Source: Methanobacteriota archaeon (GTDB taxonomy: Archaea > Thermoplasmatota > Poseidoniia > Poseidoniales > Poseidoniaceae). Taken from it: a stretch of 64,000 nucleotides of DNA. Positions 4,705 to 52,116 of the stretch are shown here, one piece after another; the first letter of the stretch is position 1, and each line of letters begins with the position of its first letter. Position numbers and translations under genes: made by a program. Below the pieces are notes generated by a model. The model worked only from the letters and a program-made list of their open reading frames with translations, did not search any database and was not told the DNA's origin. Location: contig PBMS01000029.1 of the NCBI GenBank assembly GCA_002722695.1, positions 5,724 to 69,723 on the forward strand. The letters are read 5' to 3'.

Positions 4705-5325
4705 ATGGAGCGTGGTGTCACCTGGCAAAGTGCCCTCATGTGGGTGATCGCTCTGGTGATCGTCAACGCCCTCTGGCTGAACGTTGCCGGACAAACGGCA
4801 CCCAACGAAATCAACACGGAAAATCAGTTCCAAACCCATCGAGAAATCGACATCTCCTCGGTGTTTGGGAACAACGCCCCCATCCCTGCTGAATTGACAA
4901 CAGCCTTTTCGAGCACTTCGCTGGACTCAGCCAACGTGAGTTACGCCATCAAAAAGGACAACAAAACGGTGGTCGCATCGTGGTCGGGAGACCTGAACAG
5001 CGACGTTCCAATTTGGACCGGGGAATTGGAGCCCGGGCAATACACCATTGAAACAGTGGTTGAGGACGGCGTTTTGGTGGAGCAGGACCTGCTTCTGCAG
5101 CCCTTTGCATCGGTTCAGCCGCACGGCCACGTTGTGCTGACGTTGTTGCTGGTCGCCCTTGCGTGGGGCGAACAAGGCGTCCGTGCGCTTCTTGCGAAGC
5201 GAAGTCCATCAACAAAGTCCATTCCGACCGAAAAGGTGCCGTTCAAATCCAAAGGGTTCCAGCAGGAACAGGACTCGCAGGACTGGGAGGAAGGCGACTC
5301 ACCTTGGCGTGACCCGATTCGGTGA
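4705..5325 (+). CDS. Hypothetical secreted/membrane protein with an N-terminal signal/TM and a C-terminal TM helix
   Basis: Hydrophobic N-terminus WVIALVIVNALWL and a second hydrophobic segment HVVLTLLLVALAW. No recognisable catalytic motif. Confidence 0.3.
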   Translation: MERGVTWQSALMWVIALVIVNALWLNVAGQTAPNEINTENQFQTHREIDISSVFGNNAPIPAELTTAFSSTSLDSANVSYAIKKDNKTVVASWSGDLNSDVPIWTGELEPGQYTIETVVEDGVLVEQDLLLQPFASVQPHGHVVLTLLLVALAWGEQGVRALLAKRSPSTKSIPTEKVPFKSKGFQQEQDSQDWEEGDSPWRDPIR

Positions 5326-24357: not shown

Positions 24358-24415
24358 GTGAAAACATGACCCGTTCTCCTTTGAAAGGGCAGCGGTGCAA
24401 AAGGTGTGTGAACCA

Positions 24416-27841: not shown

Positions 27842-27930
27842 GCTTCGCCTACCTTTGTCCCTATAAAGGGCTTTTTGCCCAAATGCTCAGACAAGAAGAG
27901 CGACCAAGTCGGGCACAAAGTCTTGAACAC

Positions 27931-35831: not shown

Positions 35832-37079
35832 CTATTCGGACGCCAATCGTTCCAAAATAGCGTCAACTGCGGTGGCCTTCTTGACACGTATCCATGGATT
35901 CACGGTCCGTGTTTCAATGTCCATTTTGAGCCGTTCAACACCTCCGCCGCTGATGTTGAGAAGAATGCAGTCGTCCTTGTCCACCTCACCGGATTCCACC
36001 GCTTGGAGAATACTTGCTGCTGCCACCGCTCCGGGCGTCATGATGTCGATGCCCTCGATGGTTTCGATCATGGTGCGCGCCTCCATGGCAGATTCACGCT
36101 CAACGATGTGGGTTTGGCCGTTCGAGGCTTTGAGAATGTCGTGCACAGCACCAGCTTGGCCGTACGCAGGGCCTTTGTTGAGCAGATAGTCGGAGTACAC
36201 CTTGACCTCTTCAGCGGGATAATCTCCGGGAACGAGGTGGTCGCGCCCCGCTTGCCAGGCGCTGTGTATGGGATGATGTTCGACGTTTTGTGAGACGTGT
36301 TGGCGAGGAGCGGGTCCTTCGAACAAACCGGCTTCGATCAACCGCTCAGCCATCTCGTGAATGCCGATGGGGCCCGGGCCGCCACCGATGCCTTGGAAGT
36401 AATGGTCGGGCAAACGCCCAATCGTGAAGGCTGCATCGATCATCAAGGTCCCAATGCCGTCTCGGCGAGCAACGTTGTGGACGCTGCCTTCCATCTGCCA
36501 GCCTGGAAGTTGAGCAGCGATGCTCTTGGCGACGGTCTTTGCGTCGTAATAGTCACCGTCCTCAATCACGACAAGGCGAACGCTTTCTGCGTTGTTTTCT
36601 GGGCGAGCCCAGATGCGTTTGGCGTGGTCCCTGCCCACCACGACGATGAGTGGGGTGCCGTCCAGCCCACAGAAGTGCGTGAAGGCTCGGGCGGTGTTGC
36701 CAGCGCTCGCGCAAATCAGCCCCTTGCAGCCGTGATCGTGCATGCGTTGGATGGTCGGAACGGCCTCCATGTCCTTGAAACTCCCTGTTGGACAAAGACC
36801 ACCTTTCTCAGGCCAATACCCATGGTAGGTGACCCAGAGGTTGCTCAAGCCCATCGCTTCACCGAGGGCCTCGGCCCGGTAGGTCACCGTACCGGCAACG
36901 TACTCGTTGGCCTTCGAGGTAGGAATCCATGAGAGGTACTTCCACACGCCTTTTGCGCTGTCTTGAAGCTGAAACGGTTCGCTGTAGACCGCACGCAGCA
37001 ACGCGTTGTCCGTGTAGTGGAGCGTGTAGGCGTCGTCGATGAGATCGCCTGTCTTCAGGCATTTGAGTTGATACTTCAT
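35832..37079 (-). CDS. Threonine synthase-like PLP enzyme (ThrC / cysteate synthase family)
   Basis: N-terminal MKYQLKCLKTGD. PLP-lysine motif TGSFKD. ASAGNTARAF. Start set at the internal Met with a good match to ThrC N-termini. Confidence 0.6.
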   Translation of the reverse strand: MKYQLKCLKTGDLIDDAYTLHYTDNALLRAVYSEPFQLQDSAKGVWKYLSWIPTSKANEYVAGTVTYRAEALGEAMGLSNLWVTYHGYWPEKGGLCPTGSFKDMEAVPTIQRMHDHGCKGLICASAGNTARAFTHFCGLDGTPLIVVVGRDHAKRIWARPENNAESVRLVVIEDGDYYDAKTVAKSIAAQLPGWQMEGSVHNVARRDGIGTLMIDAAFTIGRLPDHYFQGIGGGPGPIGIHEMAERLIEAGLFEGPAPRQHVSQNVEHHPIHSAWQAGRDHLVPGDYPAEEVKVYSDYLLNKGPAYGQAGAVHDILKASNGQTHIVERESAMEARTMIETIEGIDIMTPGAVAAASILQAVESGEVDKDDCILLNISGGGVERLKMDIETRTVNPWIRVKKATAVDAILERLASE

Positions 37080-37171: not shown

Positions 37172-38479
37172 TCACGACAGGGGGCGGCCAACAGCGAAAC
37201 ACTGCCAACCCAACTTTTGCAACCCGTCCAAGTCCAACACACGACGACCGTCATAGACTCGAGGTGCGTTCATCTGTTGGCCGAGCGCTTCCCAATCAAG
37301 GTCAACACACGCTTTGTGTGCTGTCACCAATACAGCGAGATCGTGATTTTTTGCCATGGTAAGGTCCTCGACCACCTCGATCGAGGCAGGAAAAGTTTCA
37401 GGATCAATATGAGGGTCGTAAACGCTGACGGCGATGCCACGTTGGTGCAAGGCTTCAGCCAACGGTTCAGCCGGTGTTTCCCGAGGGTCGCCCACTTCGG
37501 CTTTGTACGACCAACCAAGGAAGAGCACCTTCGTAGATTCCGCCGACAGCCCAGCCTTCCACAGGATGTCGACCAGGACCTGCGCGACATGGTTGGGCAT
37601 GGAGCGGTTGACCGCCCGAGCAGCGGTGATGAGCCCTGCAGGCACACCAACGTCGCTGGCTCGCTGAATCATGTAGTACGGGTCAACGGGAATGCAGTGG
37701 CCGCCCACCCCGACGCCAGGCGTGTAGCGATGGAAGTTCCACTTTGTTGCAGCAGCAGACAACACGTCCTCGACGTCCACGTCCATGGCGGGGAAAATAC
37801 GAGCCAGTTCATTGACGAGCGCGATGTTGATGTCGCGTTGCACGTTCTCAATGACCTTCGCTGCCTCAGCAACTTCAAGTTTTCCAACGTAGCGAACGTC
37901 CTCGCTCGTGAGTTGGCTGTAAAGTTGCACAAGGGCGTCGCCCACTTCAGGGTTGGAACAACCGACGACGCGAGCCACTGAACGCACGCCGTGGGCGGCG
38001 TCGCCGGGGTTGAATCGTTCGGGACAATACGCGATTTCAACATCGACGCCGATCTCTAGACCCAAATCCTCAATGAGAGGCAACCAAGTCTGAGCCGTTA
38101 CGCCGGGGTAGACCGTGGATTCGAGCACAACGATGGTGTTGGAACCTCGGGGTATTGACTCAAACACCGCTTTACCGGCCGCCTTGACATACGATAAATC
38201 AGGCTTGAGGTCGTGTGTTATGGGTGTTGGAACAGTCACAAGCACGATGTCGCATTGTGGAACGGCTTCCGCTGTGGAGGTGGTGATGTGCCAGCGTTCG
38301 CTGGCCGGCTGTGGGACGATGTCGTCGACATCAGGATCGCCCGTCGGGTTCTTTCCCGCTTTGACCGTGTCAACGGTGCGCTGCGAGACGTCAACGCCCC
38401 ACACGGTGAACCCGGCATCGTGAAACCCAATGGCCGTAGGCAAACCGACGTATCCAAGTCCGATGACGCCGATGGTCAT
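37172..38479 (-). CDS. Nucleotide-sugar 6-dehydrogenase (UDP-glucose/UDP-ManNAc dehydrogenase family)
   Basis: N-terminal Rossmann IGVIGLGYVGLPTA. Family-typical central and C-terminal domains. Confidence 0.8.
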   Translation of the reverse strand: MTIGVIGLGYVGLPTAIGFHDAGFTVWGVDVSQRTVDTVKAGKNPTGDPDVDDIVPQPASERWHITTSTAEAVPQCDIVLVTVPTPITHDLKPDLSYVKAAGKAVFESIPRGSNTIVVLESTVYPGVTAQTWLPLIEDLGLEIGVDVEIAYCPERFNPGDAAHGVRSVARVVGCSNPEVGDALVQLYSQLTSEDVRYVGKLEVAEAAKVIENVQRDINIALVNELARIFPAMDVDVEDVLSAAATKWNFHRYTPGVGVGGHCIPVDPYYMIQRASDVGVPAGLITAARAVNRSMPNHVAQVLVDILWKAGLSAESTKVLFLGWSYKAEVGDPRETPAEPLAEALHQRGIAVSVYDPHIDPETFPASIEVVEDLTMAKNHDLAVLVTAHKACVDLDWEALGQQMNAPRVYDGRRVLDLDGLQKLGWQCFAVGRPLS

Positions 38480-38653
38480 GTCGGCGTTTGAGTCCAGCGA
38501 AGCAAAGCGCTGACTCCATCCCATGTGCTATCCGAATCGGTTCATGTTATCAACTCAACCTATCAATGGACGGTGGAATATGCAAAACACCGAACGAATC
38601 CCCTCTCCGTTGAGGAACGGTCCGGTTTAGTCATATAGGAACGAAACGAGGCT

Positions 38654-39514
38654 ATGTCGATGGGGCAGAATGGTCCAACCACCCCCGTGCTCCGCCAAAT
38701 TGGGGTAAAATCAAATCCACTTCTTGCGCCCATAAACACGCTGAAAGAAGTCCGTTCGAATCGATTCCTGGTGCGGAATCTCATTCGACGTGATGTGCGA
38801 GGTCGCTATCGAAACGCTGCTCTCGGATACGCTTGGACGGTGATTGAACCTGCCTTGCTGGCCTCTGTTTACTGGTTTCTGTTCATCATGCTCAGTGGGA
38901 ATCCTGACGAAATGTACGCCGTTTGGGTGCTGTTGGGAGTGATTGTTTGGGGCTCTTTTTCAAAATCCTTGAACGCCGCAACGAATTCCCTGACCGGCAA
39001 TGTACGTACGATGCATCTTGTTTTCTTCCCGAGATCGATATTCCCCGTTTCTGGTGTTGGTGCTAACATCGTCGTCACAATGATGAGTTGTTTGATCATC
39101 CTCCCTCTTCTCTACATCTACGAATTACCAATCACAATCCACCTGGTCTGGATCCCCATCGGCGTGTTGTTGGCCGGGTTTATGGCGCTCGGTTTTGGCA
39201 TGATGATGGCGCCTCTGAATTGTGTTCAAAGGGATGTCCAGCATCTGATTCGTTTCATCACGCGTGCTGGCTTTTTCGTGTCCCCTGTGATGTGGACAGC
39301 AGAAATGGCAATGGAGCGCGGGGCTTGGGGCGAAGCTGCCCTATGGAACCCGATGGTACTACCAATCACGATGGTTCGTCATGCCCTCGAAGGGAAGAGC
39401 GTTGAATTACCGGATTCGATTGTAATTTCAAGTCTCGTGGTTTCGTTTCTGATCTACGTCGTCGGGACGATGATTTTCTCAAAATACGAGCGTGGGGCGG
39501 TGAAGTATCTATGA
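38654..39514 (+). CDS. ABC-2 type polysaccharide/teichoic-acid exporter permease (Wzm/TagG-like)
   Basis: Six predicted TM helices. The N-terminal RFLVRNLIRRDVRGRYRNAALGYAWTVIEP matches the ABC-2 signature. Confidence 0.7.
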   Translation: MSMGQNGPTTPVLRQIGVKSNPLLAPINTLKEVRSNRFLVRNLIRRDVRGRYRNAALGYAWTVIEPALLASVYWFLFIMLSGNPDEMYAVWVLLGVIVWGSFSKSLNAATNSLTGNVRTMHLVFFPRSIFPVSGVGANIVVTMMSCLIILPLLYIYELPITIHLVWIPIGVLLAGFMALGFGMMMAPLNCVQRDVQHLIRFITRAGFFVSPVMWTAEMAMERGAWGEAALWNPMVLPITMVRHALEGKSVELPDSIVISSLVVSFLIYVVGTMIFSKYERGAVKYL

Positions 39515-40230
39515 CAGAAACGAGCATCAGCCTTCAGGACATCGTCCTTCATTTCCCAAAGCAGCGGAATATTTTCGGGATTATCTCGGACTTTTTCCGT
39601 AAAAAAATACGGCGGTTCACTGCACTAAGCGGTGTAAATTTGCACATTAAGCAGGGCGAAGTGGTTGGAATAATCGGACGAAACGGTTCCGGAAAATCCA
39701 CACTCCTTAGAGTGATATCGGGTATTTACCCTCCTGACGAAGGCATGGTTCATGCTGCGGGAGACATCTCCTTGCTTGCAGGTCTAGGAACAGGGTTCTC
39801 TCCGCATCAAACGGGACGAGAAAACGCTTTGCTGTACGGCTCAATACTCGGCCACAGTGAAGAAGAAATGTTGTCCAAGCTGGATGAAATTATTGAATTT
39901 AGTGAACTGGGTTCGTTTATTGATGAGCCGCTGAGAACGTACTCAGCAGGAATGAAAGCCCGTTTGGGCCTGGCCGTCGCTTCTGCGATTAAACCGAACA
40001 TCCTTCTCATCGACGAGGTCTTGGGTGTGGGAGATCCAAATTTTCGAGAGAAATCCAAAAATAAAATTCTCGCAATGGTGAAGGGAGCCAGTACCGTTGT
40101 TATCGTATCCCACAGCTTTGGTTTGATGACCGACGTGTGCGATCGCGTCGTCCTTTTGGACCGAGGAAAAATCATTGCTGAGGGTGACCCGCAAACATCG
40201 ATCAAAGCGTATTACGATTTGGAGGAATGA
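39511..40230 (+). CDS. ABC transporter ATP-binding protein (Wzt/TagH-like)
   Basis: Walker A GRNGSGKST, ABC signature YSAGMKARL and Walker B ILLIDE. Confidence 0.8.
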   Translation: MTETSISLQDIVLHFPKQRNIFGIISDFFRKKIRRFTALSGVNLHIKQGEVVGIIGRNGSGKSTLLRVISGIYPPDEGMVHAAGDISLLAGLGTGFSPHQTGRENALLYGSILGHSEEEMLSKLDEIIEFSELGSFIDEPLRTYSAGMKARLGLAVASAIKPNILLIDEVLGVGDPNFREKSKNKILAMVKGASTVVIVSHSFGLMTDVCDRVVLLDRGKIIAEGDPQTSIKAYYDLEE

Positions 40231-41420
40231 ACGCAATGCCAACGCCGCGTAATGCAATGACGGCGAGAGAACGTCAACTGAGCGATGAACTAAACAGAAT
40301 CCGGTCAACATACTCTTTCAACCTCGGACTTCTGTTGACCGAGGCTCTCTTCAGAAAACCTTGGAAAATTCCTCTGCTCCCACTGTCGTTCGTCTTGTTC
40401 AACATCCGATACATCAAGCAAGGAAGAGTAAAAAAACTGCACATCGAAGAAAACTCAATCGAACTTGATGAAAACGTATTGATGCTCATCTCCACAACTG
40501 AAGAGGGCACGGCATCATTGGAACGGTGTGCGATTCTTGCAACAGAGTGGCTGAATGAACCTGAACGTAAGGTCGTGATCGTCAGTCCTCACGAAGACTA
40601 CCCGGGATTCTTACCGAAAAAAGCGGTGATGTATCCCATAAAAGATCCAAAGCTCTTGCACAAACAAAAACGGTCAGAGTGGAACGCATTGTGCGAGAAT
40701 CTGATCTCAAATATTCTTGAGTCGCATCGCCCGCAGCACGCAATTTTTGATGGGCCTTACCCCTATCGAGGAGTCTTAAACTCAATCAAGTCATTTCCGT
40801 CGGCCACATGGGTTTGGTTTCGACCCGAGGGGATCGACAACAGCACCCTCTTGACGCAATCCGAACATTTTACAAAAACGGAACGTTTCTCCATCTCAGA
40901 CAGACCCGGTGTGGCAATGCACGAATCGAGGAGATTACCTGTCAAAAAAGAATGGAAACGAATCTTACTCGACGCCCGAACGTATGGATCACACACGATG
41001 AAGCACGATGTGAAAATGCACAACATCTACAACGAGTTGGGGAACGACATCACTGTCGTTCACCCCTACGATGCAAATGCAATGGGTGGAGAAATCACAT
41101 CGGTGCTTTCTGAACAATCTCTTGAACACTTGATGGGGGCCGTCGTTCCTGCAAATCTAGAGATTGTTGCTGCCATGATGGCCGCAAATCTACCAACCCT
41201 GTGCATCCACACCGACGATACAAATCCCGCCACTTTAGCTGACCTGCGAAAGGGCTCGGCCCGTTGTCCGGTGATGTTTTGTCATGAACGGGACACGGTT
41301 CAGATTTTGCATTGTTTGACGACGCTGGTGAGAGACAACAACGCTATGAGAGAATGTTCCAACAGCGTGAAAAAAAGAAATTGGGTTTCTCAAATCATTC
41401 CGTCGCTTCATAAAGATTGA
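40227..41420 (+). CDS. GT-B-fold glycosyl/glycerophospho-transferase-like protein, paralog of 45208..46557
   Basis: It shares the N-terminal R..S..F.LG.LLT.A..RPW.I..LP motif with the 45208..46557 protein. Overall family is unclear. Confidence 0.35.
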   Translation: MNAMPTPRNAMTARERQLSDELNRIRSTYSFNLGLLLTEALFRKPWKIPLLPLSFVLFNIRYIKQGRVKKLHIEENSIELDENVLMLISTTEEGTASLERCAILATEWLNEPERKVVIVSPHEDYPGFLPKKAVMYPIKDPKLLHKQKRSEWNALCENLISNILESHRPQHAIFDGPYPYRGVLNSIKSFPSATWVWFRPEGIDNSTLLTQSEHFTKTERFSISDRPGVAMHESRRLPVKKEWKRILLDARTYGSHTMKHDVKMHNIYNELGNDITVVHPYDANAMGGEITSVLSEQSLEHLMGAVVPANLEIVAAMMAANLPTLCIHTDDTNPATLADLRKGSARCPVMFCHERDTVQILHCLTTLVRDNNAMRECSNSVKKRNWVSQIIPSLHKD

Positions 41421-44400
41421 CCGATGAAAGCAAACCGACGTCCCTTTCTGTCATCGGCAGTGCGAAATTGGAAAGTCGGTTTTTTGTGAAGGCCCTGTAC
41501 TTCTCCGGAATCATCTCAAGAGAAACGGGCAGGTAATGCTCAAGGAAGGTCCAATCCCTGTCAAGGTGGCGGTTTAAGTGTGGAAATTCATCAACCACCT
41601 TCAGTCCATCTTTTGATACCCCTCCATGTTTAATTGAATAGAGCGTACTTGCTGCTTGTTTCAATGGCTCTTTTTGCAAGAAGGTGGTTATTTCATTGCT
41701 CATTGCAAACGGCAACCCTTGCAAAGTGTTTTTTCTGAAACATTTCCAACAGGTTCCGCAAACCTGACCGGGACGGGAGGAACGAAGGCACGACTGTGCC
41801 CATCCGTCCCACCCCGAAGCCGTAACAATGTTGAGATTGACCACTTCCGAACAACCTGCAACCGGCTGGTACAGCGAAAGTCCGACGGCGTCAAACATTG
41901 GCGCATAGTGCTTCCAAAACCAAGATTGTTGGAAATCGCGATATTTGTACCCGTGAAAAAGGTATGAGTTTTCCAGCGGCATCCCTGTGCCTATGCTGTC
42001 CAATCCAAAATAATCAGCAAGGAGAATGGCCTGCACAGCGCATGCATAATCTGTTGAGAATCCTGCAGACTTTCCTTGATGTCGCCTTAATTCTTCATGG
42101 TTTGAAGGGATGCAATGAACGATTCTGCCAGTATCTGTTCTGATTTTATCAAAGAATCGAAAAGCGTTGGTGTGATCCAGCTGACCTGAAATGCCGGTTC
42201 GTTCATTGTAGAGCAGCACCGTATCCTCCGGCATAAGTGCCATAGCGGCAGCAGAATCTATCCCGCCAGAAAATGCCAGTCCAGGCCTCCATCCTGGTTC
42301 TCGTGTTGGGTTCCAATGTTCCATTGCTGACTTGTCCCAAGGCTCAACAAGAAGATGGTGGGCGAGTTGAAACAAGTCAGGGTGTGTATCATCAATGGAC
42401 CAGTCCATTGGCATTTGGAAGTACACTTCATGTTCTTTCCATTTCAAAACAAGCAAGTCTCCAGCGGTGGACCAGTGATCACCAACGATGTATCGATCTT
42501 GATCTCCTTTCGTGCCCGAACCACGACCGTCAAGATACTTCGCAAGCTCCTGTTGAGTCGATTTGCTCGTCCGAGTTAAATCGGGCAATTCATGTGACGG
42601 CATGAGTTCGGTTGACCATTTGCTTTCGTCTCGAAAACGAGCGCTGAGTTTGATTGCCTCGCTGTTGTTTTGGGAGGCCATCTGAACAACAACATAGTAT
42701 CCTATTTTCCCAGAGGATATCTTGGATTGAAGAGTCCCATCCAACTCAAATTCATTCCTGAGTTTCAGATGAACGTTTGAGGCAACTCGAGAGGAACCAT
42801 AGGGGCCAAGCACAAGGGACTTGATGGGACCGTTGAGCACAAGACGGCTGAGTTGGAGGGTTGAATCGCAAGCCAATGCATCCAATTCCCAACGTAGCAT
42901 GGGTGGAAATACGTCGTTTGAGATTCCTAATCGCCCAAACACATGGTCCAAACGCACGGAGTAATCCGTTGGATTTTCTCGCAGAACCGTTGCGAAACGC
43001 CGTGCGTCGGTTTCATCCACTATGATATCGACGCGTTCATCGAGTCCCGAGCGCCGGATCGATCGATTGACGCAATAAATCGTGTTGTTGTCTTGTTGAT
43101 CCTTGTTGACCGTGGACGTGTTGCTCTTGTGCTGCCTGTAGAGATACAGTGGTGTTTGCAGATGATACCCAGCGGTAATTTCAGACAGTTTCAGAAAAAA
43201 GTCATAATCCACAGCGTTGGTTATTGACTCGTCAAAGCCGCCTGAACGATTGAAATCACGCCTTCTAAACATTCGAGGATGATGAATCATCATGCCCTTC
43301 ATGAGGCGCTTTCGGCTGTATATCGCCCACGAATATGCCGGCCCCATCGAAGCTCCATGCTCATCAATAAGAAAAGAATCTCCGTACACAAATCCAACAT
43401 TCGAATTGTTCTGCAGAAACACCGAGAGCAATTTGTCTGCTGCCGATGGAAGAAGGACATCATCGCCGTCAAGCTGCAGTATGAACTCACCACGACCAGC
43501 ACGAATCGCTGCGTTTGATGCACTGGAGATTCCTTTGTTCTCCTGATGCAGGATGATGACTCGTTCGTTCCCTGAATACAATCGGTCGATCAACTCGCCC
43601 GTACCATCTGTCGATCCATCGTTGCATACAATTACTTCAAGGTCCGTCATGGTTTGGTTCAGAGCACTATCGACCGCCTCCTGAATAAAGTCCACACAGT
43701 TGTAAGCTGGGATGTATACGGTTAATCGAGGGACTTCATAGACTCGTCCTGGTTCAAATTTTCTGTACATTGCGGGACATTTTTCGACGAGTTGGTTTCG
43801 TGTGATCTCCTTCCCTGACTCACGGTCTGTCTCGTTTGATCCACCCGGTGGCTCTTGATGGAGGGCTTCAGCCCCCTCGACAGGTATGAACCACGCCCCG
43901 TGCCGATAAAGTCGATAGCCGTATTCCTGGTCCTCTGCTCCCCATGCAGTGAAGGTTTCGTCAAATCCACCGACGGATTCATGCAACTGGCGATCGATGC
44001 AAAGATTGCCACCACAGAGCCATCGAAACGCGTATTGAGCACTCTTTGCTTGCTCGGTTTCATGGTAGAATTTGTATCTCCAGTCTTCGCTCGGAGCTTC
44101 ATCGCCCACGGGTCCGCGTCCGGTGTCAACGCGTTGAGTGGGTAAATCGAGGACAGTTTCAATGTTCTCCAGAACGTCTTGAATCGAAAGGTCGTCGGTG
44201 TTTACATATCTTCGGCCGCCGATCAATACTGCCTTTTTTGACACATGCATGTACTTCATGAACGATTCAACCAGAGTTGGTTCGGGCAACATGTCGCAGT
44301 CAAGGATAATAATGCAGTCGTTGCTTGCTTCACGTACGCCCAAATTTCTGATTTCGCTCAATCGATAACCTAAATCTTCCTGAAAAACATGTTTGATGGG

Positions 44401-44685
44401 AAAAAAGTCCTTGAAAAGAGGAATGAGCGACTCCGGTGAATCGGATGAGCCGTCGTCCGCTATAACAATCTCAATCAGAGAAAGTGGATAACTGGAATGG
44501 GTGAGTGCTGCAATTGTCTTTCCCAGCTTCTCACGACGGTTGTAAACCGGTATAACAACCGAAACCGGTAGTGTGTATTCTGGCCTGCTTCGTGCAGGAA
44601 AGCGCAATTTGACCGCTCGTTGGAACAGAGTCCAATCATTTCCCTGCCCGAGGAGAGGAGGAAGTAATTCGTCGAATTCAAGCAT
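41395..44685 (-). CDS. Multidomain fusion of two tandem GT2 (GT-A) glycosyltransferase domains and a C-terminal PP-loop ATP pyrophosphatase domain (QueC/N-acetyl-sugar amidotransferase-like)
   Basis: GT2 #1 is VSVVIPVYNRREKL...DDGSSD...ILDCD. GT2 #2 is LTVYIPAYNCVDFI...NDGSTDGT...LDGDD. The C-terminal domain carries LAFSGGIDSAAA (SGGxDS) and a QueC-like zinc motif C-x9-CGTCWKC. Confidence 0.6.
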   Translation of the reverse strand: MLEFDELLPPLLGQGNDWTLFQRAVKLRFPARSRPEYTLPVSVVIPVYNRREKLGKTIAALTHSSYPLSLIEIVIADDGSSDSPESLIPLFKDFFPIKHVFQEDLGYRLSEIRNLGVREASNDCIIILDCDMLPEPTLVESFMKYMHVSKKAVLIGGRRYVNTDDLSIQDVLENIETVLDLPTQRVDTGRGPVGDEAPSEDWRYKFYHETEQAKSAQYAFRWLCGGNLCIDRQLHESVGGFDETFTAWGAEDQEYGYRLYRHGAWFIPVEGAEALHQEPPGGSNETDRESGKEITRNQLVEKCPAMYRKFEPGRVYEVPRLTVYIPAYNCVDFIQEAVDSALNQTMTDLEVIVCNDGSTDGTGELIDRLYSGNERVIILHQENKGISSASNAAIRAGRGEFILQLDGDDVLLPSAADKLLSVFLQNNSNVGFVYGDSFLIDEHGASMGPAYSWAIYSRKRLMKGMMIHHPRMFRRRDFNRSGGFDESITNAVDYDFFLKLSEITAGYHLQTPLYLYRQHKSNTSTVNKDQQDNNTIYCVNRSIRRSGLDERVDIIVDETDARRFATVLRENPTDYSVRLDHVFGRLGISNDVFPPMLRWELDALACDSTLQLSRLVLNGPIKSLVLGPYGSSRVASNVHLKLRNEFELDGTLQSKISSGKIGYYVVVQMASQNNSEAIKLSARFRDESKWSTELMPSHELPDLTRTSKSTQQELAKYLDGRGSGTKGDQDRYIVGDHWSTAGDLLVLKWKEHEVYFQMPMDWSIDDTHPDLFQLAHHLLVEPWDKSAMEHWNPTREPGWRPGLAFSGGIDSAAAMALMPEDTVLLYNERTGISGQLDHTNAFRFFDKIRTDTGRIVHCIPSNHEELRRHQGKSAGFSTDYACAVQAILLADYFGLDSIGTGMPLENSYLFHGYKYRDFQQSWFWKHYAPMFDAVGLSLYQPVAGCSEVVNLNIVTASGWDGWAQSCLRSSRPGQVCGTCWKCFRKNTLQGLPFAMSNEITTFLQKEPLKQAASTLYSIKHGGVSKDGLKVVDEFPHLNRHLDRDWTFLEHYLPVSLEMIPEKYRAFTKNRLSNFALPMTERDVGLLSSVNLYEATE

Positions 44686-45223
44686 GGTGGGGGGCTCCTA
44701 AATGCACGTCCAGCGCCGCAAATTTCCTTGGTTCCCCGTTGGATTTGAATTGCTCGCTGATGAAGATTTGAGCCTCGCAATTAAAATGTGCTTCCAAATC
44801 AATCATCAGGGAATGCTCAGCTTCCCGGTCGACATCGTCAACAAGGATGTGTTGTAACTTTGGTAAACGGGTGAGATGATTTAGTATTCCGCTGCGACCG
44901 ATTGAACCCGGCGGACCGTCGATGATGAGTAGGTGTGCTTCCATGGGGAGTTCATCAAAACACGATTCATCGTACCATCCCTCTTCTTTTCGGCTGATGG
45001 ACACAGAATTCGTCACGATCGGGGCAAAGACATAGGTCGACTTGGATTTGTGAAGCCAATCCTCGTTGTGTTCAACGGAATAGAGTTCAAATCGTTCGCT
45101 CAAACGCACGCTGCCGTCTCCACTACCGAATTCAATCACCACTGCTCCTGAGGGTATGCGTTCCTCAATCCATAAAAACGCCTCATTAGGAAGCATCCAT
45201 CCTGCGTTCATGTGTCCACCCAT
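44678..45223 (-). CDS. Putative class I SAM-dependent methyltransferase-like protein
   Basis: VIEFGSGDGS is a glycine-rich motif I-like segment and LLIIDG a motif II/IV-like segment. Weak. Confidence 0.3.
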   Translation of the reverse strand: MGGHMNAGWMLPNEAFLWIEERIPSGAVVIEFGSGDGSVRLSERFELYSVEHNEDWLHKSKSTYVFAPIVTNSVSISRKEEGWYDESCFDELPMEAHLLIIDGPPGSIGRSGILNHLTRLPKLQHILVDDVDREAEHSLMIDLEAHFNCEAQIFISEQFKSNGEPRKFAALDVHLGAPHHA

Positions 45224-46557
45224 TCTGAAAGCACCACCTGCAGAATGCTGGCACCGTTTTCCTGTTCAGAAACTGGGTTGCGTGGCCTTGACAGCAATTC
45301 AGCGACAGCGGTTTCTATTGCGGATTTGGTGCGCTCTCTAACCACCAACCCCCATCCTTCCGCTTCCGCTTGGCGACATCGAGCAAGCTGGTCGTCCATT
45401 CCAGTCGCCATGTTAGGGTAAAACACGGTAGGAATACCGAACTTCCTCATTTCGTGGTACGAGTTGTACCCTCCAGCTTGTACGCTGGCATCAAAGGCAT
45501 TGAAGTACACCGAATTAGGGTAATCTCGAAGCAAGACAACCCGATCAAGGTTCACAGAAAGACGTTCCCCCAGCATGCTTTCACCCAGCACCACGCTGAC
45601 ATTCTCATGAGCGAGAAGGGCGTCGATGGTAAGTCGCACCTCAGAACCAATTTCGTTGATTTGGCCAGCACCCAACTGAACGTACACGACTCTCTCTTCC
45701 AGCCCAAGTCCGAGGCGTTTTCTTGCATCGTTTCGTTGAATCAATTCTCCATGGTCAAGAAGCACCATTGGCGGAACTGATATTGTCTTTACACTGTGTC
45801 CAATTTCTGTTGGTTTCAGAGGAACACTGTCCTCGGGTCGCACGATTAGATCGAAGTGCTCAATTGAGTCTACGGGTATATTGCTCCCTTTCTTGAACAT
45901 CCCTCGTCGAAGCCACACTTTCTTGAGGGAGCGCTGCCCATTGAGCGCGTTTAACATACCACGATATGGAAAGGCTCCATCGTAAACAAACATCGTTGGG
46001 CGATGCTGGGTAAAAACGAGTGAAAGTTGCTCTTCCACCATCGCATTCCATTCGGATGTGGTCATGTTCTTGTGTTTTTTTCTACCCGCAAGGTGGTAGG
46101 TCGGAAATCCATCGTTGTACAACAGATGCAAGGTCGGCATTGTTGTAAAGAACACCACCTCAGATGATGGAAATCGCTTTTTCCACCTCTTGGCAAGAGC
46201 GTACATTCGAGTAAAATGGCCAAACCCGACGCCGTTTGTTGGAAACAGGACAATCGAATCCTTTCGAGGTTGATGCGCTTCTTCATGTTCCCCATCACCG
46301 TAGGGGATTGGGCGTTTACCAATTCGCTCCATGCCGATGCAAAACACAAGATAGGGAACCGTGAATGGAAGGAAAATAATCCTCCAAGGTCTCTGAACAG
46401 CGTTTGTCAGAAGAACACCCAGTCTGAATGGAGCAGAATTCCGAAGTCGCCTGTTCTCACGTTGGTAAAATCCATCCCGCTGAGTTGGCGTGTGAGATTC
46501 GTGTTCGTGGGCTTGATGATCTCCATCCATCACGTCATCAGAGTCGTAATCAATCAT
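45208..46557 (-). CDS. GT-B-fold glycosyltransferase-like protein (MurG/UGT-like G-x-G-H-x-x-R N-terminal motif)
   Basis: FPTNGVGFGHFTRMYALAKRW. The C-terminal YFNAFDASVQAGGYNSYHEMRKFGIPTVFYP resembles the GT28/GT1 C-domain. Confidence 0.45.
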   Translation of the reverse strand: MIDYDSDDVMDGDHQAHEHESHTPTQRDGFYQRENRRLRNSAPFRLGVLLTNAVQRPWRIIFLPFTVPYLVFCIGMERIGKRPIPYGDGEHEEAHQPRKDSIVLFPTNGVGFGHFTRMYALAKRWKKRFPSSEVVFFTTMPTLHLLYNDGFPTYHLAGRKKHKNMTTSEWNAMVEEQLSLVFTQHRPTMFVYDGAFPYRGMLNALNGQRSLKKVWLRRGMFKKGSNIPVDSIEHFDLIVRPEDSVPLKPTEIGHSVKTISVPPMVLLDHGELIQRNDARKRLGLGLEERVVYVQLGAGQINEIGSEVRLTIDALLAHENVSVVLGESMLGERLSVNLDRVVLLRDYPNSVYFNAFDASVQAGGYNSYHEMRKFGIPTVFYPNMATGMDDQLARCRQAEAEGWGLVVRERTKSAIETAVAELLSRPRNPVSEQENGASILQVVLSEWVDT

Positions 46558-49500
46558 TGAACCCCCTCCTCACCATTCCAAAATGAACCCAGGTATTTGT
46601 CGGCGTATTCAGTGTACCCGTTTCCTCCATGAGGCGTGGGGGTAAACTCTCCGAAAACCGCCCCTCTGCTGGTGGCGAACATGTCGATTCGCATGTACAT
46701 TCCTAGAGCGGCTCCTATGGTCCGCACGGATTCAATCATTTCTTGCCAACAATCTGGCCTCTGAATTGGATCTTGACCTTGATCCCTTTTTTCCATGATC
46801 TTCCCTGGCATCAACTTGAAATTTTCATCGTAATATTGATGTTCATTGAGGCTTTTGTTAACTTCAGATTTTCTCAAAGCCACATGCACCATCGCAATTT
46901 CTTCACCAAAGCAATAGAATTTGAAGTCCCGGGGTAAACCGTCGCTGAGTTGTTTAGGTTCTGGTTCAAGCAGTTCTTCAATCATGATTATTGGTTGATT
47001 TTGACGAATAAACTCATCCTCTGATAGTGCACGAACCAAATGCTCTCTTGTATACGCTTGGTGAGTCAAAATATCCATACCGTCCTTCATGCAATAGACA
47101 TTGTTTGAGTTCCACCCCTTTTCCGGCTTAATGACAAAGTTACGGGGCAATTGTGCCAGTTCAGGTATGTCTTGGCATTCCTTGCCCTCCCAATACAAGA
47201 CTGGGACCTTCAACCCCAAATCCTCCACGAAACTTCGCCCGGCAAGTTTCGGGGATAGTTTCTTTTGCCAAACTGGTTTTTTTGCCTTCCACCAATCGTG
47301 GTTTCGTTTCCTTATCATCTCTGAAAAAAGGGGCATGCCCGTTTCCCAAACATGATGTTTAGATTTCATCGCATCCGGAACCTCGAAAGGACGAATAGAC
47401 AACCTTCGAGGTAGGTAAGGTGAGGCGATTCCGGATTTGATTTTTTTGTGCCATAATCGGAACGAGCAGTGATGATTCAATCTGTGTCCGGACACAGAAC
47501 GCCAAGAAATGTGGAACGGCCCTCCACCTGTCAACGAACTGTTATGCAGCATCATGAACATTGAAGGTACGCTCATTCGTAATCGTCGCTCGTTTCCATA
47601 ATACGCCTCTATACGCTCAATGTACTCCGTATCTGCACCAACCCGAAGAGAATCAAAATATCCGATTTCGTCCACAACCTCCCTCCGTATGAGTAGGGAA
47701 ATACACGCCATTCTCAGAGCCCCAATTCCCCTGAATTCGACATCAGAGTTTTCGTCGATTCTGAAATAATCGTGAGTAATTCCTACCGCCTCAGGGTTTG
47801 AGCTCAGTGAATCAACCTGCATCTCAATACGTTGTGCATGACAGTAATCGTCGCTGTCCATGAAACCTATGAACGTCCCATTTGCTTGTGATATTCCGAA
47901 ATTTTTTGCGAGATATGTCCCCCCGTTTTCATTCATTTGAAACACGCGAATTCGGTCATCGGTTTGCTTCAATGTTTGAAGATACGTAAAATTATCATCA
48001 GGTGAACAGTCATCGACAATCAACAGCTCAACATTTCGGTATGTTTGATTGAGAATCGAAGCTATCGCTGAATCCAACAATGGATCTCGTTTGTACGTAG
48101 TCATGATAATGGACACAAGACGGTCATCGTCCACGAACTTGCTCACATCTGTGGAAAGATATCGCGGCGTTATGGCGTTGACTGGTGATGTGGATGTCAC
48201 CGGAGCGAGGCCATGTAATTCCAGCATGTTGTTGATGTGCTTAATTTGCATTTGGGCTTGTCCTGCATTTTTTTCGATTTGAGAGGCAGTGATGTACACA
48301 TCGTTGGATTCTGGCCAGCGGACCAAGCATTTTGATATGGTATTGCGTGCTGTTTGATGATTTCCCAGCCAGGAGTTCACCAAGGCAAAATAGAGTTGAC
48401 TTCGCTGATTGTTTGGGTGATGGTTTAAGCAGGTTTGAACAATTTCCAATGCCAAATCAAAGTCCTTCAAAACGCTCAAAACAAAATTTAATCGGGCAAA
48501 TTGATGATTTAGGTTATTTGGAAATTCTTTAGTTGCCTTCGTAATTTCAAACGAATACTTTTCTTCGGACCATATTTTAATTCCACATTTCAGCCTTCGC
48601 TGCAATGCCGATTGATGATTTTTGTTGATTTCCAACACCCGCTCAAACATGCGGATTGCGTCTTCCAACTTCCCCATGGACTCGAGAGCTATGCCTTTAC
48701 GCATCAAAAAAGAGATGCTCTCCGAATGTGAGGCTAAAGCGCCATCAAGTATGTCAAGCGCACTCGCCGCATCCCCTTCCTCCAGCATTCTCGCTGCCAT
48801 TAAATCGGTTTCAAGCAAAGTGCCTTCGATGAGTCCCAGGAGGTGTTCCGCTTCCTCCTTTTGACCTAATTCACATAACTTTAGATACGAATTACGTATT
48901 GTTGCCTTTGCGTCGACACCAAGCTCAACCAACCGTTTGCTTGCAAGTAAGATGTCCTGGACTGAACCATGGTTGATTGCAGCGTTAGCAAATCTCCGCA
49001 GGTGATACAATTTTACCTCGCCCAATTCATTGAGTCGATGGTAAGCGTCCAAAGCAAGCTGAGGCGTTTTCGTTCGATACCCAATTTCAGTCAAAATCTC
49101 CAACATCTGTAGGTCGTTTGGATCTTCCTGAAGGACCACAGAGGCAATTTGTGCTGATTCATCAAATCGTTTTGCGTGTTTCAGCCGCTTTGCCAGCGAA
49201 CGTTTTTTGGAAAGTTCACCGTCGATTTTTCCAAGATAATTCACCCATAAATTATGAGCCATTTCTATCTGCCCGAGGGATTCACACACCTGTCGCGCAA
49301 ACATCAACGTCGACTCGTTCACAACCTCTCGAGACATTAGCGAGTTGAGGAGTTCAATTCCTCCCTCAACATCTCCAGATTCAAAATGTTCTTTTGCTTG
49401 GACAAAGATAGGAAAGGGGATGTCCATGTCCCAGTTCGATTGGAGAAAAAAAGCCCTGCATGATTGCTCATGCCAAAATGTCTCAAACATCCTCGAGAGC

Positions 49501-49850
49501 AATTCTTCATCGGTGGATGTCCAAGTGATTCGGGAGGCAGCGCGCATCACGATTGAGCAATCGCCGCTTATGCATCCTGCGTGTATCAGACGTCGAAGAT
49601 ATTCTGGCTTTGGGTTAGAGGCGATGGCTCGTTGCATGAGGACGACGGCTTCTCCATGGCGAGCTGTGTTCATGAACAACCTCGAAAGGACATCTAACGC
49701 CCACAAATCGTTCGCATTATCACTGAGCATTGCCTCGAGGAAAGGCTCTGCCTCGTCGTAATTTTTGCTGTTGTAGTGGCGTCGTGCCTCGTCCTTGTTT
49801 GAGGTGGTGTTTTTCTTGAACGGCCACCTCATGAACAAATGGTCCTGCAT
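46554..49850 (-). CDS. Fusion of an N-terminal TPR-repeat region, a central GT2 glycosyltransferase and a C-terminal TupA-like ATP-grasp domain
   Basis: TPR-like helical repeats over ~550 aa. GT2 is LVSIIMTTYKRDPLL...VDDCSPD...MDSDD. The C-terminal KLAGRSFVEDLGLKVPVLYW...NFVIKPEKGWNSNNVYCM...FGEFTPTPHGG matches the TupA-like ATP-grasp. Confidence 0.6.
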   Translation of the reverse strand: MQDHLFMRWPFKKNTTSNKDEARRHYNSKNYDEAEPFLEAMLSDNANDLWALDVLSRLFMNTARHGEAVVLMQRAIASNPKPEYLRRLIHAGCISGDCSIVMRAASRITWTSTDEELLSRMFETFWHEQSCRAFFLQSNWDMDIPFPIFVQAKEHFESGDVEGGIELLNSLMSREVVNESTLMFARQVCESLGQIEMAHNLWVNYLGKIDGELSKKRSLAKRLKHAKRFDESAQIASVVLQEDPNDLQMLEILTEIGYRTKTPQLALDAYHRLNELGEVKLYHLRRFANAAINHGSVQDILLASKRLVELGVDAKATIRNSYLKLCELGQKEEAEHLLGLIEGTLLETDLMAARMLEEGDAASALDILDGALASHSESISFLMRKGIALESMGKLEDAIRMFERVLEINKNHQSALQRRLKCGIKIWSEEKYSFEITKATKEFPNNLNHQFARLNFVLSVLKDFDLALEIVQTCLNHHPNNQRSQLYFALVNSWLGNHQTARNTISKCLVRWPESNDVYITASQIEKNAGQAQMQIKHINNMLELHGLAPVTSTSPVNAITPRYLSTDVSKFVDDDRLVSIIMTTYKRDPLLDSAIASILNQTYRNVELLIVDDCSPDDNFTYLQTLKQTDDRIRVFQMNENGGTYLAKNFGISQANGTFIGFMDSDDYCHAQRIEMQVDSLSSNPEAVGITHDYFRIDENSDVEFRGIGALRMACISLLIRREVVDEIGYFDSLRVGADTEYIERIEAYYGNERRLRMSVPSMFMMLHNSSLTGGGPFHISWRSVSGHRLNHHCSFRLWHKKIKSGIASPYLPRRLSIRPFEVPDAMKSKHHVWETGMPLFSEMIRKRNHDWWKAKKPVWQKKLSPKLAGRSFVEDLGLKVPVLYWEGKECQDIPELAQLPRNFVIKPEKGWNSNNVYCMKDGMDILTHQAYTREHLVRALSEDEFIRQNQPIIMIEELLEPEPKQLSDGLPRDFKFYCFGEEIAMVHVALRKSEVNKSLNEHQYYDENFKLMPGKIMEKRDQGQDPIQRPDCWQEMIESVRTIGAALGMYMRIDMFATSRGAVFGEFTPTPHGGNGYTEYADKYLGSFWNGEEGVQ

Positions 49851-50053
49851 TGGGGTTATGGAGATGTTGTATTAATTTCAATCTGAAGGTCGTTTCCAAA
49901 GCCATCAGACCGGTCCCGAATCTTCTGCAATGATATGCGGAATTATGAACACGAACCCCTGTATATCTGCGGATTTCGATAGCACCATGCAATGGGTAGG
50001 AACTCTGGCATGGACAAGCGAAAAATGATGAACAGGTTGCGATTACGGATAGC

Positions 50054-51013
50054 ATGCCAACTCTCTTGATCACTGGGGGTGCAGGTTTCATAGGTGGGCG
50101 CACCGCTTCACTGGCAATTGAACAGGGGTGGAGAGTGAGGGTTCTGGACAACCTTTCCACTGGTTTGCAATCCACTTGCACGAGGTTGAAAAATCAAGGT
50201 GCAGATGTGTTGGTCGGTGATATACGAGACCCAAAAATGGTTGATTCTGCCGTGAGAGGCTGTGACGCTGTGGTTCACCTTGCAGCACAGGTTTCTGTTC
50301 CGTATTCGGTCGACCACTCAGACGAAAATTACGCAATCAATGTGGGAGGTACCGCTTGCCTTCTGAAAGCATGTCGAGACAACGATGTCTCACGCTTTAT
50401 CATGGCGTCAAGTGCTGCGGTTTATGGATCGTGCGAGACTCTCCCGCTCAGAGAAGAAGATGCTGGGGCCTTTCAATCCCCCTACGCAGAATCGAAACAC
50501 ATCAATGAAGACATGATGAAAGAAGCGAGGCAGAAAGGTATGGAAACAATAGCCCTGCGTTTTTTCAACGTGTATGGGACAGGGCAAAGAACGGACGGGG
50601 CCTATGCGGCAGTTGTTCCGAAATTCATTGAACTAGCAACACAAGGAAACGCGCCAATGATTTATGGGGACGGCCATCAAACACGAGATTTCATCCATGT
50701 TGATGACGTTGTTAACGCCGTTTTGATGTTGGCAAGAGAGAAATGGAATCCTGCTTACGCTCCTGTATACAACCTATCAACAGGTATTGAGGTCTCCCTC
50801 CTGCAGCTCATCAAAAAAATCCAAGGTGTGTTAAGTGAAATCTCACCAACCACAAATCGACCTGCTCCGGTACACACCGACGGCCGCACTGGCGATATCC
50901 TTCGGTCGGTAGGTTCGAGTGCTCGAATTCAAAAGGACACCGCATGGAGACCTAGTATCTCCCTGGAGAGTGGAATACGGCGTCAAATAGAGGACGCTCT
51001 CAACCGAACGTGA
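50054..51013 (+). CDS. NAD-dependent nucleotide-sugar epimerase (UDP-Glc/GlcNAc(A) 4-epimerase-like, extended SDR)
   Basis: TGGAGFIGG Rossmann motif, YxxxK context (YAESKHINE) and the usual length. Confidence 0.85.
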   Translation: MPTLLITGGAGFIGGRTASLAIEQGWRVRVLDNLSTGLQSTCTRLKNQGADVLVGDIRDPKMVDSAVRGCDAVVHLAAQVSVPYSVDHSDENYAINVGGTACLLKACRDNDVSRFIMASSAAVYGSCETLPLREEDAGAFQSPYAESKHINEDMMKEARQKGMETIALRFFNVYGTGQRTDGAYAAVVPKFIELATQGNAPMIYGDGHQTRDFIHVDDVVNAVLMLAREKWNPAYAPVYNLSTGIEVSLLQLIKKIQGVLSEISPTTNRPAPVHTDGRTGDILRSVGSSARIQKDTAWRPSISLESGIRRQIEDALNRT

Positions 51014-52116
51014 GCGTCATGGAATTGCTCTGGTTCACTGGACGCTCAATGAGCGATCTATGCTCATGCACTCAACGCGCTTTAATCGCTGGATTGTTGA
51101 AAAATGATGTGCTGATCACCTACGTCAATTCAGACGCAAGCGTGAACATTGAAAATCAAGCGTTCACCCACGTCGGCTTAACTCACCGTGCACGTCTCGG
51201 TTTCAAGGCACGCACGCTCGGGAAAATGATGGCGTTTTGGCTGTCGTCAACCGATGTAAGCGACCGCGCTGTGGCGTTGGTTGAGTGGCGCATTGCTCAG
51301 CACATTGTTCCTGTCCTCTCGGACAAAGGTATCCCATGGGCCTTGATGGACCGCAGCCCACCGGCAGATCCTGGTTTGTTGGGTCGTTTGCAGTGGAGGT
51401 CGTGGTCGCAAGCGTGGAAACTGGCCAAACGTGTGGATGCTCCTGGATTGGTTGTTTCTGCCGCACATCAGGCCTTTGTTGCGCAGAAAACCGGACATCA
51501 GCGAGCCACGGTGATTCAGGCCGGTGTGGATCTGAACCGATTCGAACCTGCGGAAAAGCAATCCACGTTCACGATGGTCTACCACGGGAGATTGGACCGG
51601 CACCGTGGATTGTTGGCGTGCGCAATGTTGGCCCAAAAAGCACGGAGTGAAGGTCTTGAGGTGGACATGATGTTCATCGGTGAGGGGGATCTTCTCCCTG
51701 CTTTGGAACGATTGGCGGACGCGAACGATTTCATTCATGTTCACAAACCGATGAAGCAAGAAGAGTTGGCACCGCTGCTCGGATCGTGTCATCTCGGCTT
51801 GTTGCCCATGCCAAAACGGACGGCCTGGATGCTGGCCAGTCCGCTCAAACGCAGTGAATTCCTTGCGTCAGGACTGCCTGTGTTTGGCATCGATCATCAA
51901 GGTCACAGGCTCGCCGGTGTGGAAAGCGATTGGTTTACGTTGGCTCCCCAGGAGGATTTTCATGCAGACGGTCTGGAGGTTTTGCGCCGCCACATGGGCA
52001 CGGAACGCCAACACTCTGCCGCGGCACGAACGTACGCAGAGAGCAACCTTGGCTGGTCGATTTCGGTCGAGGCGTTGATGGGCGTGTTGGACGATTTGCA
52101 TCACAGCGAATCGTAA
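51010..52116 (+). CDS. Glycosyltransferase family 4 (GT-B)
   Basis: The C-terminal FIGEGDLLPALERLAD ... LLPMPKRTAWMLASPLKRSEFLASGLPVFG has a GT4 nucleotide-binding-domain pattern. Confidence 0.55.
   Translation: MSVMELLWFTGRSMSDLCSCTQRALIAGLLKNDVLITYVNSDASVNIENQAFTHVGLTHRARLGFKARTLGKMMAFWLSSTDVSDRAVALVEWRIAQHIVPVLSDKGIPWALMDRSPPADPGLLGRLQWRSWSQAWKLAKRVDAPGLVVSAAHQAFVAQKTGHQRATVIQAGVDLNRFEPAEKQSTFTMVYHGRLDRHRGLLACAMLAQKARSEGLEVDMMFIGEGDLLPALERLADANDFIHVHKPMKQEELAPLLGSCHLGLLPMPKRTAWMLASPLKRSEFLASGLPVFGIDHQGHRLAGVESDWFTLAPQEDFHADGLEVLRRHMGTERQHSAAARTYAESNLGWSISVEALMGVLDDLHHSES

Follow-up and report, generated by a model that had tools for sequence, protein, structure and literature searches.

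A 64,000-nucleotide stretch of DNA from a Poseidoniaceae archaeon (assembly GCA_002722695.1, contig PBMS01000029.1, positions 5,724 to 69,723; hereafter the window) encodes an intact three-part protein in which a tetratricopeptide repeat (TPR) solenoid, a family 2 glycosyltransferase (GT2) core and a TupA-like ATP-grasp amidoligase domain follow one another in a single polypeptide. The gene heads an operon within a cassette that is conserved among independent metagenomic contigs and includes a polysaccharide exporter pair. By analogy with Campylobacter jejuni Cj1438, we propose with moderate confidence that the fusion is a cytoplasmic, bifunctional polymer-builder of an ATP-binding cassette (ABC) transporter-dependent surface-polysaccharide pathway, in which it would amidate uronic acids.

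An intact TPR–GT2–TupA-like fusion

The initial annotation of the window, made without database searches, had described a TPR–GT2–TupA-like fusion, and Pfam scans bore this out with matches above the cut-offs for TPR families, Glycos_transf_2 (PF00535) and ATPgrasp_TupA (PF14305). We searched a database of 5.8 billion proteins for full-length homologues and recovered 27 metagenomic clusters of 1086–1098 amino acids, which cover 99–100% of the query at 55–92% identity and carry the same set of Pfam domains. Because these clusters match end to end with the same domain set, an assembly or frameshift artefact is ruled out, and the comparison indicates that the fusion is kept by selection as a single polypeptide.

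Within the TPR solenoid, TPR_19 (67.8 bits), TPR_14, TPR_2 and TPR_1 scored above their Pfam cut-offs between residues 240 and 545. We built AlphaFold models of the fusion from family alignments; the closest folds in the PDB to the full-length model were the long TPR superhelices of OGT, SPINDLY, subunits of the anaphase-promoting complex (APC/C) and Ski3. The GT2 core, of the inverting GT-A type, matched PF00535 at residues 580–698 with 97 bits (cut-off 23.3; E = 1.4e-27) and was modelled with a predicted local distance difference test (pLDDT) score of 70–87. The family alignment shows no variation in its D613-D614 pair or in D665-S-D-D668, its DxD motif. Foldseek matched this core to polymerising GT-A enzymes, the Pasteurella heparosan synthase PmHS2 (33–35% identity over ~200 columns), the Escherichia coli K4 chondroitin polymerase K4CP and TarP. 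The first two, its top fold likenesses, are polymerising synthases of uronic-acid polymers. The region that follows, up to residue 840, contains the invariant blocks G-A-D740-x-E742 and SLTGGGPFHISWRS and probably comprises the GT-A acceptor half and a linker.

Scoring with the PF14305 hidden Markov model confirmed both TupA-like regions that had been picked out at the outset, at 74.4 bits for the fusion (residues 868–1088; E = 1.3e-20) and 77.3 bits for a stand-alone protein encoded elsewhere in the window, against a cut-off of 25; the ATP-grasp catalytic residues are present in both copies in alignment. Residues ~860–1090 of the fusion were confidently modelled as an ATP-grasp fold (pLDDT ~90), for which Foldseek returned VanA, LysX, PsnB and Ddl (D-Ala-D-Ala ligases) at E ~1e-6 and TM-scores of 0.4–0.5 per target; a sequence search of the PDB with the domain gave no meaningful match. 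Among 23 full-length fusions, K908 (in V-I-K), E958-E959-L960, D975 and K977, R1054-x-D1056 and G1067-E1068-x-T1070 do not vary. The ATP/Mg2+ motifs (the V-I-K lysine, the EE-L hinge, K-F, R-x-D and G-E-x-T) are common to the fusion, the stand-alone copy, the C-terminal part of Cj1438 (Cj1438C) and bacterial amidoligases. We conclude from the invariance of these residues across 55–92% identity that the ATP-grasp domain is selected as an enzyme.

A conserved cassette of polysaccharide genes

The fusion gene is followed on the minus strand by genes for a 449-amino-acid GT-B-like protein, a 181-amino-acid protein and a 1096-amino-acid protein with two GT2 domains (Table 1). Overlaps of 4–16 nucleotides join these genes (4 nucleotides between the fusion stop codon and the next start), so that the four form one operon. 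This gene order recurs in four other, independent metagenomic contigs (L001, L014, L015 and L016). The permease and ATPase genes of the exporter are adjacent within the glycan cluster in all five loci, that is, the window and these four contigs. Orthologues of the 397-amino-acid protein, 380–387 amino acids long, occupy the same position in all four other loci, and the protein may be an exporter accessory or a chain-length or terminator component.

Table 1 Features of the fusion, its cassette and neighbouring genes. Positions are those of the window unless a contig is named; aa, amino acids; ORF, open reading frame.
Feature	Positions	Strand	Basis or remark
TPR–GT2–TupA-like ATP-grasp fusion	46554..49850	-	1098 aa + stop; heads four-gene minus-strand operon
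TPR solenoid, aa 18-545	48216..49799	-	32 helices, ~16 TPR-like repeats; AlphaFold pLDDT 80-90
GT2 (GT-A) nucleotide-sugar-binding core, aa 580-698	47757..48113	-	PF00535, invariant motifs, Foldseek
Middle region, aa 699-840	47331..47756	-	many invariant columns; AlphaFold pLDDT <50
TupA-like ATP-grasp amidoligase domain, aa 841-1098	46557..47330	-	PF14305, AlphaFold, Foldseek, Cj1438C alignment
449-aa GT-B-like gene	45208..46557	-	overlaps 181-aa gene
181-aa gene with EFGSGDGS motif	44678..45223	-	overlaps 449-aa gene
1096-aa protein, two GT2 domains + C-terminal PP-loop-like/DUF6395 domain	41395..44685	-	Pfam, motifs, profile
PP-loop-like/DUF6395 domain, aa 746-1096	41398..42450	-	SGGIDS at 42253..42270
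ABC-2 permease (PF01061)	38654..39514	+	Wzm-like half of polysaccharide exporter pair; conserved in L001, L014, L015, L016
ABC ATPase (PF00005)	39511..40230	+	Wzt-like half of exporter pair; conserved in L001, L014, L015, L016
Conserved 397-aa protein	40227..41420	+	translationally coupled to ABC ATPase
NAD-dependent sugar epimerase/dehydratase, GalE/TviC-like	50054..51013	+	right edge of cassette, conserved
GT4-like 368-aa protein	51010..52116	+	right edge of cassette, conserved
Nucleotide-sugar 6-dehydrogenase	37172..38524	-	all three UDPG/MGDP dehydrogenase domains; TIGR03026 386 bits
Cysteate synthase	35832..37079 (ORF to 37208)	-	TIGR03844 410 bits, cut-off 325; adjoins dehydrogenase
Stand-alone TupA-like ATP-grasp gene	34155..35063	-	PF14305 77.3 bits, E 1.8e-21; listed ORF to TTG 35129
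Stand-alone PP-loop-like paralogue	L001 4598..5992; L014 2994..4412; L015 3200..4579		between epimerase and fusion

The dehydrogenase, predicted from the start to form uronic acids, stands as described: it has all three expected domains and adjoins the permease side of the cassette in every one of the five loci. It scores higher on UDP-N-acetylhexosamine models (archaeal WecC-like, TviB) than on UDP-glucose dehydrogenase models.

The 449- and 181-amino-acid pair equals a single gene product of 629–630 amino acids in L001, L014 and L015. A frameshift or assembly error is ruled out, since L016 has the same kind of split (3133..4988; 449 and 170 amino acids) with an overlapping start, and the comparison indicates a natural fission/fusion polymorphism. 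The EFGSGDGS-bearing C-terminal part is possibly an S-adenosylmethionine-methyltransferase-like domain. Searches of Pfam, NCBIfam and the PDB gave nothing significant for the 181-, 397- and 449-amino-acid proteins.

In the double-GT2 partner, the last 350 amino acids contain SGGIDS, a motif that does not vary among the fused copies, and end in a region with the motif C-x2-C-x2-C. A family profile searched against the PDB matched only PP-loop enzymes, aligned at the motif, with argininosuccinate synthase at E = 0.0087 and NAD synthetase weaker; the Pfam match to QueC was marginal (E = 0.31). The PP-loop domain named in the initial annotation is supported by these two motifs and by marginal profile matches, which make an acyl-adenylate-forming domain of this class on the partner plausible, short of proof. 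Between the epimerase and fusion genes of L001, L014 and L015 lies a stand-alone paralogue of 459–472 amino acids, which reads SAGTDS where the fused copies read SGGIDS. It is missing from the window, which has a 203-nucleotide spacer (49851..50053) at that place.

The window also encodes the large subunits of archaeal PolD (DP2) and of primase (PriL), which make the host archaeal and rule out a bacterial origin of the window. A 2.4-kb contig 90% identical to the fusion (L002, CALDQY010000052.1) is binned in an 'uncultured Rhodobiaceae bacterium' metagenome-assembled genome (MAG) and is most likely a mis-binned Poseidoniales contig. Guanine-plus-cytosine (GC) content falls from ~58% to 45–50% between ~38.6 and 51 kb of the window, with values per gene at third codon positions (GC3) of 0.46–0.57 inside this stretch and 0.58–0.80 outside it; the dehydrogenase sits in host-like GC. 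The cassette core keeps ~44–47% GC (GC3 0.41–0.58) despite flanking genes with GC3 of 0.56–0.80, the flanks being much richer in L001 and L015, and blends with its surroundings only in the low-GC host of L014. This pattern suggests either that the cassette moves laterally among Poseidoniales or that a surface-glycan island has a persistent compositional bias.

Upstream of the glycan region lie genes for an 898-amino-acid thrombospondin type-3 repeat protein (16180..18876, plus strand), an 876-amino-acid protein with HVO_0163-type helix-turn-helix domains (21799..24429, minus strand), a 1141-amino-acid WD40 protein (24416..27841, minus strand) and a STAND/AAA_16 NTPase (27676..29502, plus strand).

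Relatives of the ATP-grasp domain

A phmmer search with the ATP-grasp domain of the fusion against 1.84 billion cluster representatives yielded 1806 relatives, the closest of which are all long proteins. Database searching recovered the TPR–GT2–ATP-grasp architecture outside the window: Pfam scans identified it in relatives down to 40% identity (P0172, P0175 and P0176), among which a P0175 cluster member, 'Candidatus Thermoplasmatota archaeon', bears the sole organism label. Relatives of the fusion also occur in a 'Poseidonia sp.' MAG, and farther TPR–GT2–TupA proteins are labelled Candidatus Thermoplasmatota or Euryarchaeota archaeon; these labels place the host among the Marine Group II archaea (Poseidoniales). 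Other arrangements comprise GT2–TupA without TPR (P0174, 'Methanobacteriota/Euryarchaeota archaeon'; P0181; P0222), the reverse order TupA–GT2 (P0297) and a non-ribosomal peptide synthetase (NRPS)–TupA protein (P0289). Poseidoniales have been noted for many lineage-specific fusion proteins of O-antigen/glycosyltransferase type (PMC11237513). The closest named non-archaeal relative, from Sulfitobacter aestuarii (P0044, 255 amino acids), is 39–40% identical to the ATP-grasp domain of the fusion. This protein, Proteus WemR and Bacillus halodurans TupA match PF14305 as the fusion does, but such bacterial stand-alone proteins are single-domain (~250–310 amino acids) and mostly without biochemical characterisation.

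In a rough neighbour-joining tree of the ATP-grasp domain, drawn without support values, the fusion domain sits within a clade whose members are all long fusion proteins, the stand-alone copy of the window belongs to a different Poseidoniales clade, which clusters with Cj1438C, and other GT2 fusions are scattered. This scatter indicates that GT2 and TupA-like domains were joined several times in separate events (in Cj1438, P0181, P0222, P0297 and the archaeal clade), and such recurrence speaks for a functional link between the two.

The stand-alone copy probably starts at ATG 35063, giving 302 amino acids, because its 113 homologue clusters are mostly 302–308 amino acids long. By BLASTP it is 28% identical to Cj1438C over 236 amino acids (E = 9e-18) and 25% identical to the ATP-grasp domain of the fusion over 127 (E = 4e-4), and is thus nearer to the former. 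Its family comprises more than 100 clusters in Poseidoniales/Euryarchaeota MAGs, some named 'ATP-grasp fold amidoligase family protein [archaeon]' by NCBI, so that the initial impression of a TupA-like system as unusual in an archaeon was overstated. Its neighbours differ among five other Poseidoniales contigs (AdoHcyase/DLH; a beta-propeller protein with GFO_IDH_MocA and DegT; Iso_dh with AXE1), so that no conserved tie to the cassette or to the cysteate synthase is seen. The two TupA-like copies had been read as a joint pointer to one glycan system; their 25% identity, separate clades and lack of conserved linkage, with unrelated neighbours elsewhere, rule this out. A further protein, P0178 (500 amino acids, 'Candidatus Poseidoniaceae archaeon'), has ~230 N-terminal amino acids without an assigned domain before its ATP-grasp domain, and Poseidoniaceae therefore hold at least three distinct types of TupA-like protein.

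Proposed function, alternatives and meaning

Cj1438, encoded with the HS:2 capsule of C. jejuni, is the only characterised GT2–TupA-like fusion and consists of a GT2 domain (residues 1–325), a linker and a TupA-like ATP-grasp domain (residues 453–776) (PMC11800379). Cj1438C carries out the ATP-dependent amidation of the C6 carboxylate of capsule glucuronic acid with serinol phosphate or ethanolamine phosphate, and the acceptor must be amidated before the GT2 domain (Cj1438N) will transfer N-acetylgalactosamine in furanose form (GalfNAc) to it (PMC11800379). A protein that joins GT2 to ATP-grasp was thus already known. We compared the proteins by BLASTP, using the Cj1438 sequence from the supplement of the same paper (PMC11800379). 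The GT2 domains are 29% identical over 123 amino acids (E = 6e-12) and the ATP-grasp domains 22% over 223 (E = 2e-4); as the two matches are collinear, the archaeal fusion has a weak two-domain similarity to Cj1438. Both proteins place GT2 before a C-terminal TupA-like ATP-grasp domain with the K, EE, RxD and GExT motifs, and both are encoded in a surface-polysaccharide cluster with a nucleotide-sugar 6-dehydrogenase. They differ in that Cj1438 has no TPR domain, in their identity of only 22–29% and in their hosts, bacterial and archaeal. The C. jejuni capsule is exported by an ABC transporter, as we propose for the cassette polymer.

On the model of Cj1438, the dehydrogenase and the epimerase would supply a UDP-(N-acetyl)hexuronic acid, and another glycosyltransferase of the cassette would add the uronic acid to a growing lipid-linked chain. 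The ATP-grasp domain would activate the C6 carboxylate of the chain-terminal uronic acid as an acyl phosphate, with conversion of ATP to ADP and Pi, and couple it to an amine to give a uronamide, onto which the GT2 domain of the same polypeptide would add the next sugar. The TPR solenoid might conceivably act as a scaffold for oligomerisation or for docking of cassette enzymes or the exporter, and the PP-loop-like domain of the double-GT2 partner might conceivably perform a second, adenylate-type carboxylate modification, for example to a primary amide. The finished polymer would be exported by the ABC-2 transporter. Every step needs cytoplasmic ATP or UDP-sugars, in keeping with a polymer that is completed inside the cell and only then exported by the ABC transporter. 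An amidated-uronic-acid glycan, as suggested in the initial annotation, is in this way partly supported, the same activity having been demonstrated for Cj1438 (PMC11800379).

Archaeal glycans with such modifications have been described: the N-glycans of Methanococcus voltae and M. maripaludis contain Thr-amidated mannuronic acids, and Methanoculleus has a C6-amidated diaminoglucuronic acid (PMC11407970). They resemble the proposed polymer in that a uronic acid bears an amino acid or amide at its C6 carboxylate, but are dolichol-assembled N-linked oligosaccharides that are transferred by AglB and not ABC-exported. The enzyme that attaches Thr in Methanococcus is, we take it, AglU/MMP1084.

Genes for TupA-like enzymes generally lie in surface-polysaccharide loci, and the enzymes are predicted to decorate the polymers with amino acids (PMC13419641). 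Since the cassette contains no amine-making enzyme, the likeliest donor, and our default guess, is a common metabolite, for instance an amino acid. The gene adjoining the dehydrogenase offers a different candidate. Glutaredoxin (Grx), BolA and a ThrC-like protein had been named among the neighbours; the first two assignments hold, whereas the 'ThrC-like' gene encodes a cysteate synthase, which probably starts at ATG 37079 to give 415 amino acids. In a non-methanogenic Marine Group II archaeon this enzyme could feed a sulfonolipid, a sulfonated glycan or another product, and a connection to the glycan is speculative. We consider it unlikely that amidation of the Cj1438 type uses ethanolamine phosphate, serinol phosphate, cysteate or taurine in place of a proteinogenic amino acid, with the cysteate synthase supplying the amine for a sulfonated uronamide glycan. 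Cj1438C does use phosphorylated amino alcohols (PMC11800379), the cysteate synthase is bona fide, and a role for it in making coenzyme M is unlikely, as we infer from Poseidoniales not being methanogens. A PALP gene lies beside the dehydrogenase in three of the five loci (the window, L001 and L015), but not beside the cassette in L014 and L016; the cysteate synthase is in host-GC DNA outside the low-GC cassette, which encodes no phosphatase or decarboxylase. We know of no precedent for cysteate-amidated uronic acids, which also counts against this donor.

Several points weigh against our proposal that the fusion builds an amidated polymer. Its substrate and product are assigned from sequence and analogy. 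The neighbour-joining tree puts Cj1438C nearer to the stand-alone copy than to the fusion domain, so a common fusion origin is not supported; Cj1438 and the archaeal fusion probably arose independently, and this placement together with the low identity makes transfer of substrate by homology weak. The amine-supply enzymes Cj1435–1437 have no counterparts among the cassette genes at 38654..52116, which encode no aminotransferase, decarboxylase or haloacid dehalogenase-type phosphatase for amine supply. Residues 666–838 are extremely conserved in sequence, yet the AlphaFold model is not confident there. In fold, the full-length model comes closest to OGT and SPINDLY, TPR-glycosyltransferases that modify proteins, and the substrate of one TupA-like enzyme, CfmP, is a fimbrial protein, FimA, instead of a polysaccharide (PMC13419641).

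These last two observations would suit a protein-directed modifier, in which the TPR domain recruits an S-layer or other surface protein and the GT2 domain, the ATP-grasp domain or both glycosylate it or ligate amino acids to it. We regard this as unlikely. OGT, SPINDLY and TPR-bearing bacterial capsule polymerases share with the fusion a long N-terminal TPR superhelix joined to a glycosyltransferase, but the OGT and SPINDLY matches are driven by the generic superhelix, and these two enzymes have GT-B (GT41) catalytic domains and not GT2, act on protein acceptors and lack ATP-grasp. The context is that of a classical polysaccharide cassette, with an ABC-2 exporter, at least five glycosyltransferase domains, a nucleotide-sugar dehydrogenase and an epimerase, and no candidate protein substrate is conserved in it.

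A last point against the proposal comes from L016, where the fusion (345..3133) ends at 830 amino acids, comprising TPR and GT2, and is followed by a 101-amino-acid ORF; judging from this variant, amidation may be dispensable. The rest of the L016 cassette is intact, although the ATP-grasp domain is lost or disrupted. Such a variant is in keeping with an ATP-grasp domain that does not modify glycans, being either a degenerate structural domain or a ligase yielding a small-molecule or peptide product, like Ddl, RimK or teichuronopeptide enzymes, and the broad substrate range of the family, with its NRPS–TupA fusion, points the same way. We nevertheless think this unlikely, since every ATP- and Mg-binding residue is invariant among the divergent full-length fusions and the recurrent, separate joining to GT2 speaks for a role tied to glycans. 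In addition, a scan of the window ORFs, which was not exhaustive, showed no genes for the synthesis of poly-gamma-glutamate, as expected for a teichuronopeptide system (TupA sensu stricto) with its polyglutamate–polyglucuronate copolymer.

Returning to the amidated, exported polymer, a bolder version of it would have two domains that activate carboxylates in chemically different ways, ATP-grasp through an acyl phosphate and PP-loop through an acyl adenylate, carried by polymerising glycosyltransferases on a TPR-scaffolded line, produce an acidic, capsule-like, ABC-exported heteropolysaccharide with two kinds of amide decoration, possibly sulfonated through the cysteate synthase; this we hold to be doubtful. 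Three features appear to be undescribed: a conserved family of TPR–GT2–TupA proteins that is specific to marine Thermoplasmatota, the cassette partner that joins two GT2 domains to a PP-loop-like domain, and the setting beside an ABC exporter in an archaeon that is uncultured yet abundant worldwide. The system is less surprising than first thought, because GT2–TupA fusions and amidated archaeal glycans have precedents and TupA-like genes are common in the lineage.

Few planktonic archaea are as abundant as those of Marine Group II, which are still uncultured; to our knowledge, nothing is known experimentally of their cell-surface glycans. The cassette yields a testable prediction, an exported polymer with amidated uronic acids, and its domains can be cloned. 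It would extend to Archaea the principle seen in Cj1438, that the next sugar is transferred only after amidation, and brings in two features not yet explored: a TPR scaffold of 16 repeats and a double glycosyltransferase with a PP-loop-like domain. Its low GC in hosts of different GC may mark a flexible surface gene pool, probably exposed to phages or grazers. A doubly amide-decorated polymer, if it exists, would be a type of cell-surface polymer not recognised so far in archaea and might contribute amide nitrogen to the dissolved organic matter of the sea.

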